Below the pieces are notes generated by a model, which worked only from the letters and a program-made list of their open reading frames with translations, was not told where the DNA came from and did no database searches. From IMG/VR virus record IMGVR_UViG_3300045988_094222: a stretch of 16,682 nucleotides of DNA, one strand, 5' to 3'. Position 1 is the first letter of the stretch, and each line of letters opens with the position of its first letter. A program made the position numbers and the translations under genes. This DNA is from a virus. Shown here in pieces: positions 1 to 16,682 of this stretch.

Positions 1-119
1 ACGATTGCCGATTTCCGAGAATCCCTCAAAGGTTCCCTGAATTGCCATTGTTCGCCTCTTTTCGTTGCAATTCCGCCGTTTTCAGGCTTTTTTTATTTTT
101 GGTTGGGGGTGAAAAAAAC
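1..119. repeat. Left copy of the 119-nt terminal direct repeat (circular-assembly overlap or true terminal redundancy)
   Basis: Base-by-base identity with 16564..16682, checked by eye including the T7-A-T5 tract. Confidence 0.95.
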
Positions 120-164
120 TTGGCGCGGGGTGATTTCCAAGGCCGTCCGTTTAAAAAACGAGCC
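49..164. promoter_or_regulatory. Candidate cos / packaging-recognition region
   Basis: This is one of the few intergenic gaps. It lies between the HNH nuclease gene stop (165) and the start of the putative small terminase gene (maps to 48 on the circle). It is locally AT-rich, with a T7AT5 tract (88..100), A7 (112..118), A6 (153..158) and a G5 run (105..109). An HNH-cos-terS-terL order is typical of HK97-like cos phages. Confidence 0.35.
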
Positions 165-1117: not shown

Positions 1118-1540
1118 TCAGCACACCCCCGCGTAAGCCTTGAGCGAGGTCAACAGGTCGGCGCGGTCGAACACCTGAACACCGGCGCGCTTGCGAGGCC
1201 GCTGCACGTAGCCTTCACTGATAAGCTGCTGCAACACATGGTCTCCGGTCGGGTCAGCGGTCGGCGCAATCTTGCCGAGATGCAGCAGCTTGCACACCAT
1301 GCCACGCTCAATCGAGTCGGTGCCCGTGGTGTCATGCTCCAACTGGGCGACGTTCCACCTGATAGCGTTCTTCATGTCCTTCGTCCGCTGGGCCTTATTC
1401 GCCGGTGACTGACGCTTGGCACGCCGGGAAATCGGACGGCCGGAACGTTTGTAAGAGACTGCATAACCCATCTTGTTGCCTCGTTTCGTCGTAAGTGCTT
1501 GGTTGATGTTCTTGTGAATCGTGATTAACCGGGTTTTCAT
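1118..1540 (-). CDS. Hypothetical basic protein (function unknown; the only mid-sized early-region protein, so a candidate replication/DNA-binding factor)
   Basis: 140-aa ORF with a lysine/arginine-rich N-terminal third. The ATG at 1540 has GAAGG 9 nt upstream. An alternative ATG at 1471 (MGYAVSYK) has GAGG 7 nt upstream. I recognise no motif. Confidence 0.6.
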   Translation of the reverse strand: MKTRLITIHKNINQALTTKRGNKMGYAVSYKRSGRPISRRAKRQSPANKAQRTKDMKNAIRWNVAQLEHDTTGTDSIERGMVCKLLHLGKIAPTADPTGDHVLQQLISEGYVQRPRKRAGVQVFDRADLLTSLKAYAGVC

Positions 1541-1933
1541 TTCATGTGACCTTCGGGTGGTGAGCGGTTGAGCGGGGGAACCTAAGCCGGAAACAAGCGT
1601 TGAAGCGCAAGGCTTCGCCGTCGTTTCCAGTGAGGTTCGCCCAAATTGCTTCGTAACGGAGCCGCGTATATCGCTTTGAGGTCAGCGGCCGAAGCCGCGC
1701 GCAAGGTCACGACAAGAGGCCCGCCACGTATGACGGTGCTGCACCCTGTTGCGCCCTGACAATGCGCCCCAAGTCGTTCAGTAATCCCGCATGGCGTCCC
1801 CGCGCCGTCTTAACCACGCCCCCACAGGGCGTGTGTTTGTAACGCGGTGGGCAAGCCGCGCTAGGGTACTTTCACCGTGCTACGGGTCACCTAGAGTCGC
1901 CCCCGATTACGGCACATTCAGTTATCGGCACGC
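1541..1933. other. 390-bp non-coding GC-rich block with several stable hairpins (candidate structured RNA, late-operon control region or origin)
   Basis: There is no ORF of 60 aa or more, and by hand I found none above about 37 codons on the minus strand. Hairpins: GCGGC-CGAA-GCCGC at 1685..1698 (a C(UUCG)G tetraloop when read on the minus strand); a 7-bp stem CACGCCC/GGGCGTG at 1815..1833; GGAAAC...GTTTCC at 1589..1628; and a stem with a UCCCCG loop at 1791..1808 (plus-strand reading). Confidence 0.4.
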
Positions 1934-3212: not shown

Positions 3213-3542
3213 ATGACACAAACAATTATTAGCCCTCGACCTACAGCGGAATCGAGGCAAAGTGAAAGTCTCCAAGAGATAGTGACGCGGAACATGCGCG
3301 TGGCTATCGCGCTGCGCGGCTGCGCGCAAAAGGACTTAGCGGCTGCTATGGGAATAACGCCCGCCAGCTTGTCTCAGAAGTTCGTCGGTAAGACCTTGTG
3401 GAACCTCGTAGATATAGAAAAAGCCTCAGGTTTCTTCAATGTGAAACCTGAGGCGTTGGTAGCGGGGCATGGATTTGAACCATGGACCTCTGGGGCTAAA
3501 CCACCTTGGATATATCCCGATTACTGGGCGCTGGTTGACTAG
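3213..3542 (+). CDS. XRE-family HTH protein (CI/repressor-like) whose 3' end is encoded by the attP core
   Basis: The HTH pattern is RNMRVAIALRGCAQKDLAAAMGITPASLSQKFVGKTLWNLVDIEKASGFFNVKPEAL. The last 28 or so codons (AGHGFEPWTSGAKPPWIYPDYWALVD) are read through the antisense tRNA 3' fragment and beyond. Confidence 0.8.
   Translation: MTQTIISPRPTAESRQSESLQEIVTRNMRVAIALRGCAQKDLAAAMGITPASLSQKFVGKTLWNLVDIEKASGFFNVKPEALVAGHGFEPWTSGAKPPWIYPDYWALVD
3411..3454 (-). terminator. Rho-independent terminator on the minus strand, immediately 3' of the tRNA-like fragment
   Basis: A perfect 12-bp stem, GCCTCAGGTTTC (3423..3434) / GAAACCTGAGGC (3443..3454), with an 8-nt loop. On the minus strand it is followed by TTTTTCTATATC. 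Confidence 0.6.
3457..3494 (-). other. attP core: 3' portion of a tRNA gene (T-arm, acceptor 3' strand, discriminator, CCA)
   Basis: The minus strand reads CCCAG-AGGTC-CATGG-TTCAAAT-CCATG-CCCCGCT-A-CCA. That is the anticodon-stem 3' strand, variable loop, T-stem/loop, acceptor, discriminator and CCA. There is no matching 5' acceptor strand or D-arm upstream, so it is a fragment. It lies 74 bp upstream of the integrase gene. Confidence 0.8.
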
Positions 3543-3567: not shown

Positions 3568-4392
3568 ATGGCGAAGAAAATGGTTATGCCCGTTGCGTGG
3601 GCGCAAGATGTTGATTGCTGGTTGGAGACGTTGAAGGCCGCTGGTTTCAGCGACGACACGGTGAGGTCGCGCCGGTACAAGATAGCGCGGTTGTGCCGTG
3701 AGCTGCCAAGCCCGATGGAGACAACCGGTGAGCAGATAACGCGGGTTTTCGCGGCGCATGATTGGAAACCCGAGACGCGCAAGGGCTATCGCAACACGAT
3801 AGCCGGGTTCTACCGCTGGTTCTATGAGACGGGTCGGCGTGGTGACAATCCCACGGCGAAGGTGCCGAAGGTGAAGAAGCCACAGGCGCACCCCCACCCT
3901 TGCCCTGACAAATATATTCTCATGGCGTTGGGGAAGGCCACCGAAGATGAACGGCGCATGATACGGCTCGCCGCCGAATGCGGCCTACGTCGTTCCGAGA
4001 TTGCCGCCGTGAACAGTGATGATGTGATGGACGATTTGCTAGGCAAGTCGCTTATCGTGCGAGGCAAGGGCGACAAGCAGCGCATAGTGCCGTGCCCTGA
4101 CGATTTGGCCGCTGAGATACAAGCGTGCGGCGGCTACCTGTTCCCCGGCAGATGGTCGGGACACGTCGAAGCGTCTTACGTGGGCAAGCACATTACACGG
4201 CTGCTGCCTGATGGCTGGTCGGCCCACTCGCTACGGCACCGGTACGCCACCAGAACCTATGAGTCAACACATGACCTGTACTTGGTGAGCAAACTGCTGG
4301 GCCATTCCTCGGTCGAGACAACACAAATCTACGTTGCGATGCCTGACAGCCGGTTACGCGCCGGCATGTCCGCCGTCACTCTGCAAGCCTGA
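3568..4392 (+). CDS. int: Tyrosine recombinase / phage integrase (small XerC/D-like type)
   Basis: Catalytic signature: GLRRSEI (Arg), HSLRHRYAT (His-x-x-Arg), LLGHSSVETTQIYV (His...Tyr). It is adjacent to the tRNA-type attP. Confidence 0.92.
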   Translation: MAKKMVMPVAWAQDVDCWLETLKAAGFSDDTVRSRRYKIARLCRELPSPMETTGEQITRVFAAHDWKPETRKGYRNTIAGFYRWFYETGRRGDNPTAKVPKVKKPQAHPHPCPDKYILMALGKATEDERRMIRLAAECGLRRSEIAAVNSDDVMDDLLGKSLIVRGKGDKQRIVPCPDDLAAEIQACGGYLFPGRWSGHVEASYVGKHITRLLPDGWSAHSLRHRYATRTYESTHDLYLVSKLLGHSSVETTQIYVAMPDSRLRAGMSAVTLQA

Positions 4393-12052: not shown

Positions 12053-13621
12053 TCAGGCGGTCTTGAACTTGACCGGGATAAGGCCGTCAACGTTTGTGGC
12101 GGCAACCGCCATATAGCCGTACACCGAATAGTTTTCGGTGAGCTTGGTCGGGTCGCCGTCGCTGAGCTGCGTGGGGCCACCGCTTTCCCACACCGTCACC
12201 GATTCGGGGTCGATGAAGCACGCCGTGCCAGCCGGGGCCTTGGGGAGCATCTGCACCGGCAGACGAAGGAACTTACCGGCGATGCCGGTCAGGTCGAAGT
12301 TGCCGATGGTGTCCGAGCCGTCGCCGGACAGGTCGAAGAATCGGGAACCGCTGTCTTTCAAGGCGATAAGCGAGGCCATAACGTCCTTGCTGACGCCAAG
12401 ACGGGTGAGGTTCACGTTACGGTCGTCGGCCAGTTCGGCGGCGTTCATAATCAGCGTGGCCCACTGGTCGATGGTCATGTTAGCAAGCGTGGCGGGCGCG
12501 TCGAGCTTGTTGGGGTTACTCGTCGCGTCACGCTGACCGGCGATGGTCGTATACAGGTAGTTGCGCACGGCGGTTTCGGTCGCCTTCGCGTAGGCGTTGC
12601 GCAATGCAGCCAATGCCGTGTTGAGCATTGGGGTGGTGGAACGCTCGATTACCTGACGGCTCATGGTGGTGTAGCCGCCGTAGGTGTCGATTGACACGCT
12701 CTTGGTGCCGAACGTGACCTTGCCGAACTTGAGCGCGTTGCCTTCCTCCGCCTGTTTCGTCGCGCCGGTGGTGTCGGTGCTGACCACGTTGTATTCCATG
12801 GTCATGCCCTTGTCCGGCAGTGTGTCGTGCGTGAGAATGTTCGTTACCTTGCGGCGCATTTCGATAAGCCGCAAATCGTCCGCAATCCAAGCGCTCGTGT
12901 TGCCGGTGCCGCCGGTGGCGATAAGGTCGCGGCATTCGTGCATGAGCGTCACGGCTGCTTCGTCTCCGCGAGAGAGCGCCTGTAGATAGTCTCCGGCGGT
13001 ACGGTATTCACCGCCCAAGGTCTTGTGTTCGGGGGTGCTGCCCTTGGCGATGGCGGCTTTCATGCTGCGCTGTTCGTCCTTGATGCCGTCAAGCATATTC
13101 TGTAGTTCCTTGTCCACCTTCGGTGCCTCGCTTTCGGTTGATTGGTTGTTGTTGGTGGTCTGCTGCGCGTTGCGCTGCCCGGTGATTTTCGCGGCCTCGT
13201 ACGCGGGCCATGACACCACCGACGTTTCCAACAGGCGCACGCGCTTGCGGTGCGTGATGCCCTGTTTGTCGGTCTCCGACTCGATTGGGATAAAACCGAC
13301 GCTCAACGAGTCCAGCGCGCCGTCACGCAACAATGCGACAGCGTCGCGGCCTCGCTGCGTGTCCGAGATTCGGGCCGTGATATGCAAGCCGTCTTCGCGG
13401 GGTTCGGCGTTGGTGATTCGTCCGATGGTCTCGCCATGCTCATAGCTGAGCTTGGCGCTGTCCACGTCATCGAACACGCAATCAGGGTCGAACGTCTCTT
13501 GGCCGTCCCATGTGTCGATAATCTGGCCGAACGGCACGGCGATGCCCTCAAGCGTGCGCCCGTCGCCTTCATCGCTGCTGCGAAGGCACACGCCACGCAA
13601 GCCGATATCGATTCTGTTCAC
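12053..13621 (-). CDS. Prohead protease (HK97/S78-type) fused to HK97-fold major capsid protein
   Basis: The N-terminal 150 or so aa (LEGIAVPFGQ...LSYEHGETIGRI...EDGLHITARI...DGALDSLSVGF...VSWPAYEAA) fit the prohead protease pattern. A Gln/Asn/Lys-rich coiled linker follows, then an approximately 330-aa capsid-like region. There is no separate protease or scaffold gene. A GTGA overlap links it to the portal stop. Confidence 0.8.
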   Translation of the reverse strand: MNRIDIGLRGVCLRSSDEGDGRTLEGIAVPFGQIIDTWDGQETFDPDCVFDDVDSAKLSYEHGETIGRITNAEPREDGLHITARISDTQRGRDAVALLRDGALDSLSVGFIPIESETDKQGITHRKRVRLLETSVVSWPAYEAAKITGQRNAQQTTNNNQSTESEAPKVDKELQNMLDGIKDEQRSMKAAIAKGSTPEHKTLGGEYRTAGDYLQALSRGDEAAVTLMHECRDLIATGGTGNTSAWIADDLRLIEMRRKVTNILTHDTLPDKGMTMEYNVVSTDTTGATKQAEEGNALKFGKVTFGTKSVSIDTYGGYTTMSRQVIERSTTPMLNTALAALRNAYAKATETAVRNYLYTTIAGQRDATSNPNKLDAPATLANMTIDQWATLIMNAAELADDRNVNLTRLGVSKDVMASLIALKDSGSRFFDLSGDGSDTIGNFDLTGIAGKFLRLPVQMLPKAPAGTACFIDPESVTVWESGGPTQLSDGDPTKLTENYSVYGYMAVAATNVDGLIPVKFKTA

Positions 13622-16611: not shown

Positions 16612-16682
16612 TGTTCGCCTCTTTTCGTTGCAATTCCGCCGTTTTCAGGCTTTTTTTATTTTTGGTTGGGGGTGAAAAAAAC
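16564..16682. repeat. Right copy of the 119-nt terminal direct repeat
   Basis: Identical to 1..119. It contains the start codon (16611..16609) and the GAGG ribosome-binding site of the 16303..16611 gene. Confidence 0.95.

Follow-up and report, generated by a model that had tools for sequence, protein, structure and literature searches.

A conserved RNA of about 380 nt with two pseudoknots in the lytic operon of a minimal temperate actinophage

The window, by which we mean the whole 16,682-nt stretch of viral DNA analysed here, carries an operon with the order cro-like gene, small ORFs, a structured RNA, a winged-helix gene, an Xis-like HTH gene, HNH, terminase, head, tail and lysis. Among the products of the window's genes we recognised integrase, HTH regulator, HNH, terminase, portal, protease-capsid, tail, tape measure, endolysin and holin domains. 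Scans of the ORFs with Pfam, PHROG and NCBIfam revealed no replication genes, a result that undetectable homology keeps from being proof of absence. The likely cos region is the non-coding DNA that separates HNH from terS (window 1-164 and 16612-16682).

On the minus strand, between an early ORF of 64 aa (1934-2128), part of a mosaic early region, and a gene encoding 117 aa (1118-1471), lies a non-coding stretch at 1472-1933. The preliminary description had reported a GC-rich non-coding block at 1541-1933; its non-coding nature held up, but the true stretch is longer, and the GC content of the block (0.58-0.63, vs ~0.60 for the genome) is not elevated. Within the stretch we found a structured non-coding RNA domain of ~379 nt (1550-1928, minus strand), which has the same sense as the flanking genes. 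This core begins with CCGAUAAC and ends with CACCACCCGAAGG, as delimited by alignments, nhmmer and CM matches and structure statistics, and its 5' end lies 8 nt past the stop codon of the upstream ORF. The adjoining part, at 1472-1549 (minus strand), is a lower-GC spacer and 5' UTR containing the RBS GAGG at 1482-1479.

We found the RNA once in each of over 100 related ~16-kb genomes or prophages of temperate siphoviruses, which together yielded 86 unique copies. The hosts of the carriers are Bifidobacterium and other gut Actinomycetota, and relatives lie in Bifidobacterium genomes. Matches by nhmmer and CM span the full length of the RNA in every relative: the CM gave one full-length match per genome, at 124-193 bits, including for copies left out of training. 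Nucleotide identity of the RNA block is 70-99% in relatives in which the neighbouring protein is merely 55-74% identical, and the RNA takes up ~2.3% of the minimal 16.7-kb phage genome. BLAST of plasmid and cultured-phage collections found no copy, and full-text literature searches found no published account of the RNA. We found neither a conserved promoter or terminator of its own nor recognisable processing sites.

A test for open frames is uninformative at 60% GC, where open stretches occur in every frame. Column variability in the block, however, showed no 3-base periodicity (phase entropies 0.835/0.829/0.823, vs 0.77/0.64/1.14 in the neighbouring gene), and the majority of indels between relatives were not multiples of 3. 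The absent codon periodicity and the frame-shifting indels exclude a hidden ORF, as had been supposed when no credible ORF was noticed on either strand, and no relative encodes a small protein at this site.

Evidence that the block folds came from covariation. Across 62 copies, the 76 pairs of 14 helices were 92.1% paired, vs 79.1% after shuffling and 38-44% with slid partners; none of 500 shuffles reached the observed pairing. Compensatory changes on both sides occurred in 48 of the 76 pairs. Conservation and covariation among relatives, proposed earlier as a check, are thus both strong. In the well-aligned helices, G.U and A.C counts were 121 vs 1, 116 vs 0, 42 vs 0 and 45 vs 2; overall there were 462 G.U cells vs 94 A.C cells, the latter mostly from misaligned helices. 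Because G.U pairs far exceed A.C pairs, we conclude that the minus strand is the folded strand. The only signal on the plus strand was a terminator-like site arising from the antisense of helix S4, and no antisense promoter was found. Folding energies of the single sequence gave z = -0.76 for the minus strand and z = -2.7 for the plus strand relative to shuffles. The minus-strand energy is no better than that of shuffles, and therefore the hairpins by themselves are not beyond chance; we rejected thermodynamic stability as proof of structure, since the z-scores mislead, and relied on covariation instead. The idea that the block is a missed small protein gene, or neutral spacer DNA with chance hairpins, could draw on the open stretches in every frame and on the unremarkable folding energy, but it is effectively refuted by the lack of codon periodicity, the mostly frame-shifting indels, a nucleotide conservation above that of the neighbouring genes and the massive covariation.

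The covarying pairs define an elaborate fold, all of it on the minus strand. At its 5' end is a hairpin (1876-1916) made of S1 (1916-1912 with 1880-1876), which covaries but is partly misaligned and only 61% paired, and S2 (1905-1902 with 1886-1883), which is 94% paired and covaries in 3 of 3 counted pairs. The S2 loop, CUAGG (1894-1890), pairs with CCUAG (1865-1861) in a pseudoknot, PK1 (1861-1894), that crosses S2 and is 100% paired in 62 copies, with combinations such as GC:44/CG:18 and CG:42/AU:17/GC:3. Next comes the S3 hairpin (1843-1860; CGCGG-CUUGCCCA-CCGCG), which has a conserved loop and is likewise 100% paired, a C-G to G-C switch affecting one pair in 6 copies. S3 is followed by UUACA (1838-1842), the 5' portion of the motif UUACAAACAC (1842-1833), which extends into the 5' arm of S4 and showed no variation in 62 of 62 copies, nor in 26 copies retrieved independently via a 3' motif. 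The S4 hairpin (1812-1837; AACACACGCCC / GGGCGUGGUU) is 93% paired, with compensatory changes in 6 of 10 pairs, and the S5 hairpin (1793-1806; GGCG-CGGGGA-CGCC) covaries in 3 of 4 pairs.

A long-range closing helix joins GCGGG (1786-1790) to CCCGC (1576-1572). It is 98% paired and nearly invariant, and variants in the relatives L039 and L044, such as GGUGUG/CACACC, support it in part. A central three-way domain (1709-1777) is composed of S7 (1777-1766/1720-1709; covariation in 11 of 12 pairs), S8 (1764-1761/1745-1742; 4 of 4 pairs, 99.6% paired) and S9 (1736-1732/1725-1721; 95% paired). From the S8 loop, GCGCAA (1754-1749) pairs with UUGCGC (1704-1699) to form a second pseudoknot, PK2 (1699-1754), which is 94% paired, covaries in 4 of 6 pairs and occurs among the copies as GCGGAA/UUCCGC, GCGGUU/AACCGC, GACGAA/UUCGUC and AAGAC/GUCUU. 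The S10 hairpin (1685-1698; GCGGC-UUCG-GCCGC) is 98% paired and covaries in 4 of 5 pairs. The 3' domain (1572-1662) holds a small hairpin, GCU...AGC (1662-1660 with 1650-1648), helix S13, GAACCU/AGGUUC (1638-1633 with 1583-1578; 98% paired, covariation in 4 of 6 pairs), a variable hairpin capping S13 (1630-1587) whose length and sequence differ from clade to clade, and the 3' arm of the long-range helix (1576-1572). The 3' tail, CCCGCUC(U)AACC...CACCACCCGAAGG (1550-1576), consists of nearly invariant columns and is kept in all clades. Invariant junction nucleotides are found in UUACAAACAC, (A/G)UGCGGG and GGCUCC.

Three hairpins noticed in the preliminary description proved to be parts of this fold: GCGGC-CGAA-GCCGC (1685-1698), read as UUCG on the minus strand, is S10; the 7-bp stem CACGCCC/GGGCGTG (1815-1833) is the core of S4; and the composite hairpin GGAAAC...GAAGC-GCAAG-GCTTC...GTTTCC (1589-1628) is the variable hairpin capping S13. 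Its plus-strand reading fared differently. C-rich loops in the style of the 6C sRNA had been proposed, but the fold lies on the minus strand, where these runs are G-runs, and the UCCCCG loop at 1797-1802 is the S5 loop read on the wrong strand. The suggested pairing of the C-runs with GGGG-containing ribosome-binding sites depends on the same plus-strand reading, which the excess of G.U over A.C on the minus strand leaves unsupported. The RNA shares with 6C a high-GC actinobacterial setting and, if the plus strand is read, C-runs; it differs in size (~380 nt, against a small two-hairpin sRNA), in having the opposite functional strand and in matching no Rfam family.

The search of the whole window against Rfam, suggested earlier as a check, gave zero matches at gathering thresholds to any of 4227 families; Rfam 15 covers 6C, group I and II introns, RNase P, tmRNA, T-box, HEARO/omega RNA, ROOL, GOLLD, raiA and Collinsella-1, among others. 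Permissive thresholds over 1400-2100 returned noise only (E > 6), in 11 diverged relatives the flanking tRNAs were the sole real matches, and ARAGORN detected no tRNA or tmRNA. A tRNA-like 3' end (CACCA) was rejected when no acceptor-stem partner was found. We also rejected an IscB omega RNA (HEARO): the HNH protein has 262 aa, an AAA_33-like domain and no RuvC, it scored 19 bits against guided_IscB (cut-off 175 bits), and there was no Rfam match. Unannotated gaps of 255-509 nt occupy the same position in the Gordonia phages Emperor, SallySpecial, EricDab and Schiebs and by eye contain short look-alike motifs (UUACGAAGCC and UUCCGCUC..AAC..CCACCC), but homology was rejected because the motifs are not colinear. 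In these four phages, Arthrobacter Taj14 and Rhodococcus RRH1, all cultured tiny actinophages, nhmmer with full and 3'-tail profiles found nothing significant; CM R1 with filters off gave a best E of 0.93 in the same set and no match with E < 6 inside the gaps.

Together, these results leave us highly confident that the element represents a new family of large structured RNA: a ~379-nt minus-strand domain within a single long lytic operon, with at least 14 helices, two pseudoknots and a long-range closing helix, carried by a temperate siphovirus of ~16.7 kb whose integration site is tRNA-Met. The covariation in support of the RNA is unusually clean. In general appearance it recalls ROOL and GOLLD, which likewise span several hundred nt with many helices, pseudoknots, strong covariation and a phage or prophage location. 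Unlike these, the phage RNA is smaller, matches neither in Rfam, is confined to one ~16-kb actinophage lineage and occupies one fixed syntenic site in an operon, not near tRNAs. To our knowledge, large intricately folded bacterial and phage RNAs are rare, and nearly all characterised ones are ribozymes or central RNP scaffolds. Human-gut metagenomes commonly contain this phage family, and the minimal 16.7-kb phage genome, which lacks replication genes, makes the function of the RNA experimentally tractable.

The RNA lies at a boundary between mosaic early genes and a conserved packaging/head block. A recombination boundary maps to ~1926-1928, and the homology of three relatives (L007, L013 and L020) to the window begins at 1925-1927; in another (L150), the early region before the RNA is reduced to one 56-aa cro-like gene and one 52-aa ORF. 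The block kept in all clades comprises the RNA, as its 5' edge, followed by the winged-helix gene, the Xis-like gene, HNH, TerL, portal and capsid, and the RNA is inherited with this packaging/head block, not with any early gene. It was suspected earlier that the early/late junction of this phage, whose genome has no recognisable replication genes, holds a structured and conserved nucleic-acid element, and this is borne out. We also identified a 3.9-kb mini-element with att-like flanking repeats that lacks late genes altogether; besides the switch genes it carries only the winged-helix gene, the Xis-like gene and the RNA, which is intact. No other copy shares more than 79% identity with this RNA, yet its well-aligned helices (PK1, S3, S5, S8, PK2, S9, S10 and S13) are fully paired, as are 10 of the 12 pairs of S7.

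These features bear on whether the RNA acts on its own, processed from the operon transcript as a new ribozyme or a trans-acting RNP scaffold, which would make it comparable to ROOL and GOLLD; possible roles are pRNA-like DNA packaging or the binding of a host machine such as RNA polymerase or the ribosome. Its size, invariant junctions, two pseudoknots and closing helix are hallmarks of a defined tertiary fold, and it is inherited alongside the terminase, portal and capsid genes in exactly one copy per genome. We nevertheless consider a free-standing RNA unlikely: it has no promoter, terminator or recognisable processing sites, it is unlike all 4227 Rfam families, and its position rigidly just upstream of one gene is more typical of cis elements. 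The mini-element, which has the RNA yet no packaging genes, speaks against packaging in particular.

The gene that always follows the RNA (1118-1471) starts with the ATG at 1471 and encodes 117 aa in the window, where the family norm is 113 aa with the beginning MGY. Its product has a Lys/Arg-rich disordered N-terminus (MGYSVDYKPTRRRAKRTVPKNKAQRTK) and a winged-helix domain (AF2 pLDDT 79). No Pfam domain was detected in any of 156 homolog clusters, which have hundreds of member sequences each, and the protein was not found in plasmid or cultured-phage collections. Foldseek gave weak, non-significant matches (best E = 0.035) to the winged-helix domains of Cdt1, ORC/Cdc6, MarR and excisionase. 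Gene and RNA occurred together in 7 of 7 genomes. This constant adjacency would suit a long 5' leader that controls only the translation or stability of the winged-helix gene and plays no part in replication or antitermination, and a conserved CUGACCU(C) could, by inspection only, pair with the conserved RBS region ACGAGGU. We regard such a leader as quite improbable, however: the structured core stops 70-110 nt short of the RBS, the spacer between is poorly conserved, there is no RNA-RBS covariation, and 380 nt with two pseudoknots seem excessive for one 113-aa protein.

The spacer itself has a GC content of 0.43-0.57, vs ~0.60 for the genome (~46% over window 1469-1562). In most sister clades it holds 1-5 tandem TTATCCAC(A) DnaA boxes, in one orientation and directly 3' of the RNA. 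We counted 111 DnaA boxes in 9.3 kb of spacer vs 103 in 487 kb elsewhere, a ~56-fold enrichment over the remaining loci. A DnaA-dependent theta origin would combine DnaA boxes, an AT-rich unwinding element and an adjacent initiator gene; sister clades have a DnaA-box cluster in a low-GC stretch next to the winged-helix gene, a putative initiator. The window's own spacer has ~46% GC and degenerate DnaA-box-like repeats (TTAATCACG, 1528-1520, and GATTCACAA, 1520-1512, minus strand): it holds no true DnaA box within 1 mismatch, only remnants with 2-3 mismatches. The adjoining boxes could also indicate that the element works as DNA, whether as a single-strand initiation signal, as an array of protein-binding sites, or as an origin or packaging signal of another hairpin-forming kind; single-strand origins, too, have strand-specific hairpins that tolerate G.T. 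Two pseudoknots, a closing helix with a 210-nt range and abundant G.U pairs fit RNA better, and the likely cos region is sited elsewhere, which makes a DNA element very improbable indeed.

The conservation of the RNA in ~16-kb phages without replication genes suggests that it probably serves a core viral function, either the start of replication or late-gene switch-on, through RNA. Since no polymerase, primase, helicase or recognisable initiator was found, the host replisome would have to be recruited through a cis element. The reading that we prefer, and hold tentatively, is that the RNA, the lower-GC spacer and the winged-helix gene form a host-dependent replication-control module; we infer that the region may be an origin and that the RNA fold may take part in initiation. 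Early transcription would cross the folded RNA domain and then enter the spacer, which host DnaA, and possibly the winged-helix protein as well, would bind. The RNA might then serve as a pre-primer or R-loop former resembling ColE1 RNA II, opening or priming the origin. Alternatively, as a leader with pseudoknots it might determine how much of an initiator-like protein is made, as in the IncB/IncI-alpha rep leaders.

Both models have partial precedents. In ColE1/pMB1, RNA II is also a long structured transcript of hundreds of nt that runs into an origin, and there, too, the replicon encodes no replication protein; it depends on enzymes of the host. The ColE1 origin has a DnaA box a short way downstream, comparable to the arrays directly 3' of the phage RNA in sister clades, the window itself being without boxes. 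The two RNAs share no sequence similarity, however, and no antisense RNA I-like gene was detected in the phage; RNA II is not known for pseudoknots or invariant junctions, and it belongs to an enterobacterial plasmid, not a tailed actinophage. In the rep leaders of IncB, IncI-alpha and IncL/M, a long-range pseudoknot lies directly upstream of a small DNA-binding initiator gene. The phage arrangement of a structured leader ahead of a small DNA-binding gene is similar, the winged-helix protein being the putative initiator, but here we see no sign of an antisense RNA or a leader peptide, and there is no homology.

A role in replication had been among the functions initially considered for the block. 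Arrays of perfect DnaA boxes, which in sister clades follow the element directly on its 3' side, lend the origin idea independent support, and the window's own clade, with no true box in its spacer, counts against the module. The invariable presence of the winged-helix neighbour also argues for it, as do the weak top structural matches, which include winged-helix domains of origin-binding proteins. Similarly, the mini-element keeps the RNA without late genes, which would be expected for replication or regulation but not for late-gene expression in cis or for packaging. Since the DnaA boxes adjoin the RNA and are not part of it, they may be functionally unrelated neighbours. Invariant junctions and pseudoknots typify RNAs with a precise three-dimensional fold that bind macromolecules or are catalytic; an RNA that only primes or forms an R-loop does not obviously need them. 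Two further points weigh against the module: its RNA is inherited together with the packaging/head block, and no copy of it turned up on any plasmid.

An origin that includes the RNA would account for replication in the smallest temperate actinophages and would offer a compact host-dependent replicon for Bifidobacterium genetics. A bolder formulation, possible but doubtful, is that a tailed dsDNA phage lineage without replication proteins uses a double-pseudoknotted RNA of ~380 nt as the core of a host-DnaA-assisted origin or, equally, that early regulatory proteins have given way to an RNA of a new ribozyme or RNA polymerase-binding class; in both cases, this would be a new large, ornate RNA class with an essential role in Bifidobacterium phages that abound in the human gut. 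An antiterminator or a ribozyme would constitute a new mechanistic class.

The other candidate core function, late-gene switch-on, would make the RNA a cis-acting leader that modifies RNA polymerase for terminator read-through over the ~12-kb late operon, at the early-to-late switch. The RNA might act alone, like HK022 put and Bacillus EAR, or with the Arg/Lys-rich winged-helix protein in a layout resembling lambda pL-nutL-N. Lambda nut with N, put and EAR are likewise cis RNAs in long transcripts upstream of genes that depend on read-through, and in lambda, too, a small basic protein is encoded after the RNA site. The phage RNA is co-oriented with the operon, begins 8 nt past the upstream stop without a conserved promoter or terminator of its own and marks where the block shared by all clades starts on its 5' side. 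Moreover, the protein encoded next has an N-terminus that is basic and disordered, a terminator-like hairpin followed by T6 lies just past HNH (174-159), and the 3' tail contains a conserved CGCUC(U)AAC reminiscent of boxA. We judge this explanation somewhat unlikely. At ~380 nt and with two pseudoknots, the RNA is three to five times larger than put, nut or EAR and far more complex, and it has no Rfam match; we know of no antiterminator RNA near this size, put having about 70 nt and EAR about 120 nt. The mini-element has an intact RNA but no late operon, and the DnaA boxes would be left unexplained.

The resemblance to boxA and boxB is also weak. The boxA-like stretch overlaps the long-range helix in part, and in a comparison of 13 Bifidobacterium rrn leaders their conserved block (GGUGGUUUGAGAACUCAAGAGCGUGUUUGUACUAC) was unlike it. 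A boxB-like mini-hairpin, CCC-GAA-GGG, covaries in some clades (CUU-UAA-GAG) but is lost elsewhere (AUCCGAAAU). The nut analogy is thus weakened both by the rrn leaders and by one clade that has lost the mini-hairpin. We also rejected mimicry of sequences from the rrn leader or ITS, profiles giving no significant match; a 9-nt complementarity was left over as a curiosity.

The preliminary description had singled out a 390-bp non-coding gap with stable hairpins at window 1541-1933. That finding is real, and stronger than sequence alone could show: the gap holds a conserved structured element of about 379 nt (window 1550-1928, minus strand; hereafter the RNA). All three hairpins listed at the outset were found where they had been placed; on the functional strand, however, the sequence is predicted to fold no more stably than shuffled versions of itself (folding-energy z = -0.76), and the hairpins alone are thus not evidence. 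Nor does the gap deserve to be called GC-rich, as its composition is not raised relative to the genome. Column variability in the RNA lacks a three-base phase (0.835/0.829/0.823, compared with 0.77/0.64/1.14 in the adjacent gene) and most indels are not multiples of three (10 of 10 and 16 of 17 in two example clades). The region is therefore non-coding, as the lack of a credible ORF had suggested, and we give almost no weight to a coding sequence or to chance.

We fetched relatives first through the downstream protein, which yielded 3 Bifidobacterium genomes and 24 viral contigs; the gap sequence is present in all of these loci at 70-99% nucleotide identity, whereas the adjacent protein is only 55-74% identical. 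Two independent DNA-motif scans supplied further loci. The 5'-half motif recovered 66 viral contigs and seven genuine genome matches (six Bifidobacterium species and one Eggerthellaceae MAG); three of its matches were due to chance (genome matches L031 and L035, viral contig L084). The 3'-tail motif recovered 31 further viral contigs, each with a full-length RNA unless cut by a contig end. The total came to 86 unique copies, one per genome, and many of the contigs that carry them are 16-17 kb, matching the window in size. In several relatives homology begins at window 1925-1927, 8 nt past the stop of the upstream ORF. Four metagenomic viral contigs (L121, L131, L138 and L141) terminate within the RNA, near model positions 158-222, probably because assembly broke off where the central domain is variable or mosaic.

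RNAalifold, run on 62 unique copies, proposed 53 pairs, and compensatory changes occur in 31 of these; extra helices were added through a covariation scan and inspection of the more diverse 86-copy alignment. The collection of homologs and covariation check that had been proposed thus gave a final model of 14 helices and 76 pairs, 48 of which change on both sides. Paired cells amount to 92.1%, versus 79.1% after shuffling (none of 500 shuffles reached the observed value) and 38-44% when partners were slid by 1-3 columns; the covariation score is 0.354, versus 0.135 (shuffled) and 0.06-0.075 (slid). In well-aligned helices, G.U far outnumbers A.C (121 vs 1, 116 vs 0, 42 vs 0, 45 vs 2 and 32 vs 1), and the fold therefore lies on the minus strand, in the same sense as the surrounding genes. 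This removes the earlier idea of plus-strand, 6C-like C-loops, since the runs in question are G-runs on that strand. A DNA-level element we regard as highly improbable.

On the minus strand, with coordinates running from high to low, the model opens with S1 (1916-1912/1880-1876) and S2 (1905-1902/1886-1883), the latter crossed by pseudoknot PK1 (1894-1890/1865-1861). There follow S3 (1860-1856/1847-1843), S4 (1837-1827/1821-1812), S5 (1806-1803/1796-1793) and a long-range helix (1790-1786/1576-1572). A second pseudoknot, PK2 (1754-1749/1704-1699), crosses both S7 (1777-1766/1720-1709) and S8 (1764-1761/1745-1742), and its covariants include GCGCAA/UUGCGC, GCGGAA/UUCCGC, GCGGUU/AACCGC, GACGAA/UUCGUC and AAGAC/GUCUU. 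The remaining helices are S9 (1736-1732/1725-1721), S10 (1698-1694/1689-1685), a small hairpin (1662-1660/1650-1648) and S13 (1638-1633/1583-1578), capped by a variable hairpin at 1630-1587. UUACAAACAC (window 1833-1842, minus strand), whose 3' half lies within the 5' arm of S4, is invariant, also in copies fetched by the unrelated 3' motif. A covariance model built from the middle 190 positions scored 124-180 bits on copies outside its training set and found exactly one copy per locus.

Searches for a known family (6C-like or other) in Rfam gave no match in the window or in 11 diverged relatives, no tRNA or tmRNA was found, and BLAST searches of the plasmid collection and of cultured phages yielded neither the RNA nor the adjacent protein. 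Since the HNH nuclease is no IscB, an omega RNA was rejected. As far as the present evidence goes, the family does not extend beyond one gut-actinobacterial phage lineage. Together, these comparisons make it very probable that the element is a new, large, strand-specific structured RNA, and it represents a class of large RNA with two pseudoknots that had not been described before.

The window holds the whole genome of a very small temperate siphovirus, in attP form. On the plus strand a tyrosine integrase (3568-4392) follows a cI-like HTH gene (3213-3542), and a cro-like HTH gene (3161-2856, minus) opens a co-oriented series: several tiny ORFs lacking database matches, the gap, a mechanically called 140-aa ORF (1540-1118), an HTH_17/excisionase-like gene (1117-923) and a gene (953-165) for an HNH nuclease with a fused AAA_33-like P-loop domain. 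The series continues across the window ends with a small ORF, large terminase, portal, protease-capsid fusion and connectors, then major tail protein, tape measure, minor tail, endolysin and holin. The 35 nt at 3460-3494 exactly match the 3' terminus of a tRNA-Met gene that borders relatives, which makes them the attP core and the window an excised or circular form; this core falls within the 3' part of the cI-like ORF. The kinase-like C-terminal domain of the HNH protein lies just below the Pfam cut-off (E = 2.6e-5), and such a fusion upstream of terminase genes is unusual for cos-phage HNH. Head maturation protease and major capsid protein form a single 522-aa ORF (12053-13621, minus), an arrangement shared with Arthrobacter AN-cluster phages and other tiny actinophages. 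By terminase (30-34% identity), the closest cultured phages are 14-17-kb "tiny" actinophages of Gordonia, Arthrobacter and Rhodococcus. In a genome-wide comparison, early, integrase, lysis and tail genes are mosaic, and every clade has the RNA together with the three genes after it, terminase, portal and capsid. In this abundant family of minimal gut actinophages the RNA is a core component that keeps its syntenic place.

The gene after the RNA belongs to the same family in 7 of 7 genomes. Its homologs (156 clusters) are almost all 113 aa and start MGY, at the codon equivalent to the ATG at 1471, which has GAGG 7 nt upstream. The mechanical start at 1540 is thus probably wrong, 1472-1540 being 5' UTR or spacer, and the non-coding stretch is 1472-1933 rather than beginning at 1541. 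A purely translational leader is unlikely. The protein has no Pfam domain; in the predicted structure (pLDDT 79), the N-terminus is disordered and rich in Lys/Arg, and a long helix and a winged-helix domain come after it. Foldseek matches are weak (best E = 0.035) and are to Cdt1, ORC/Cdc6, MarR-type regulator and excisionase winged-helix domains. The spacer between the RNA and this gene is 60-105 nt, with a GC of 0.43-0.57, lower than the genome. In several diverged clades it contains DnaA boxes (TTATCCACA), 1-5 in tandem and in one orientation, that are perfect or nearly so; 111 occur in 9.3 kb of spacer, versus 103 in 487 kb of the same loci. Other clades show boxes in visible decay (TTACCCACT TTAACCGCC); the window spacer has no box within one mismatch, only the remnants TTAATCACG/GATTCACAA.

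No window ORF matches a replication protein family in Pfam, PHROGs or NCBIfam, and in prophage L150 the whole early region before the RNA is a 56-aa cro-like gene plus one 52-aa ORF; in this lineage there is simply no space left for replication proteins. Since a phage of this kind needs a cis element to bring in the host replisome, we rank a replication-control role first, though at somewhat less than even probability. The RNA-spacer block, which would be that element, is the major conserved non-coding region, DnaA-box arrays adjoin the RNA in most clades, and a small winged-helix gene comes next, much as initiator genes follow origins in plasmids. The RNA could serve as a ColE1 RNA II-like pre-primer or R-loop former or, alternatively, as a pseudoknotted leader setting initiator levels. 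Against such a role, the boxes are not part of the RNA and the window's clade lacks them, the RNA travels with packaging and head genes, and its tertiary-fold hallmarks are unnecessary for priming. A processed trans-acting ribozyme or RNP ranks third and seems doubtful.

Replication control gains further support from a 3.9-kb chromosomal mini-element (L115 7122-11009; also L116-L118), which keeps exactly the RNA-spacer-winged-helix module. It occupies the same site as L150, between metA(HTS)/the ATP-synthase operon and glgE, and carries a cro-like HTH gene, small ORFs, the winged-helix gene, an 80-aa ORF and an HTH_17 (Xis-like) gene; integrase, HNH, terminase and structural genes are absent. 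Two att-like repeats of ~150 nt, 77-79% identical to window 3327-3494 (the attP region), flank it, and the protein index lists it in 129 blocks. Its RNA (L115 9536-9917) is intact and full-length, yet no other copy is more than 79% identical to it. Pairing is complete in the well-aligned helices PK1, S3, S5, S8, PK2, S9, S10 and S13, in several of them by compensatory changes seen in this copy only, and holds at 10 of the 12 positions of S7. The mini-element may be a satellite, or else a deletion derivative that has become fixed.

Its retention of the RNA counts against the second-ranked reading, a put/nut-like processive antitermination or late-switch leader, as do the size of the RNA and a failed boxA comparison with the host rrn leader. 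This reading, to which we assign about one chance in a handful or slightly better, draws on the position and co-transcription of the RNA with the operon, the basic product of the next gene, and a terminator-like hairpin plus T6 (159-174, minus) directly after the HNH stop codon. The AT-rich non-coding stretch beyond that hairpin (1-164 and 16612-16682) probably contains cos. UUACAAACAC is complementary to 9 nt (GUGUUUGUA) of a conserved block, GGUGGUUUGAGAACUCAAGAGCGUGUUUGUACUAC, in Bifidobacterium 16S leaders (rrn loci L174, L197, L203 and others), with a rough post-hoc chance of about 0.002-0.01; profile search found no wider similarity between the RNA and these leaders, and the match may be coincidence.

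Cultured tiny temperate Gordonia phages have unannotated gaps of 255-509 nt at the equivalent map position, before HNH (Emperor, L109 15962-16286; SallySpecial, L112 2765-3076; EricDab, L111 2673-2927; Schiebs, L113 1726-2234). These have conserved blocks in common with one another and no homology to the RNA by nhmmer or covariance model; they may hold an analogous element. Within the family itself, the names of L148 (IMGVR_UViG_637000031_000001) and L007/L092 (IMGVR_UViG_2864509982_000001) suggest isolate-genome origin and point to cultured lysogens suited to experiments, the L007 RNA being 99.5% identical to that of the window.
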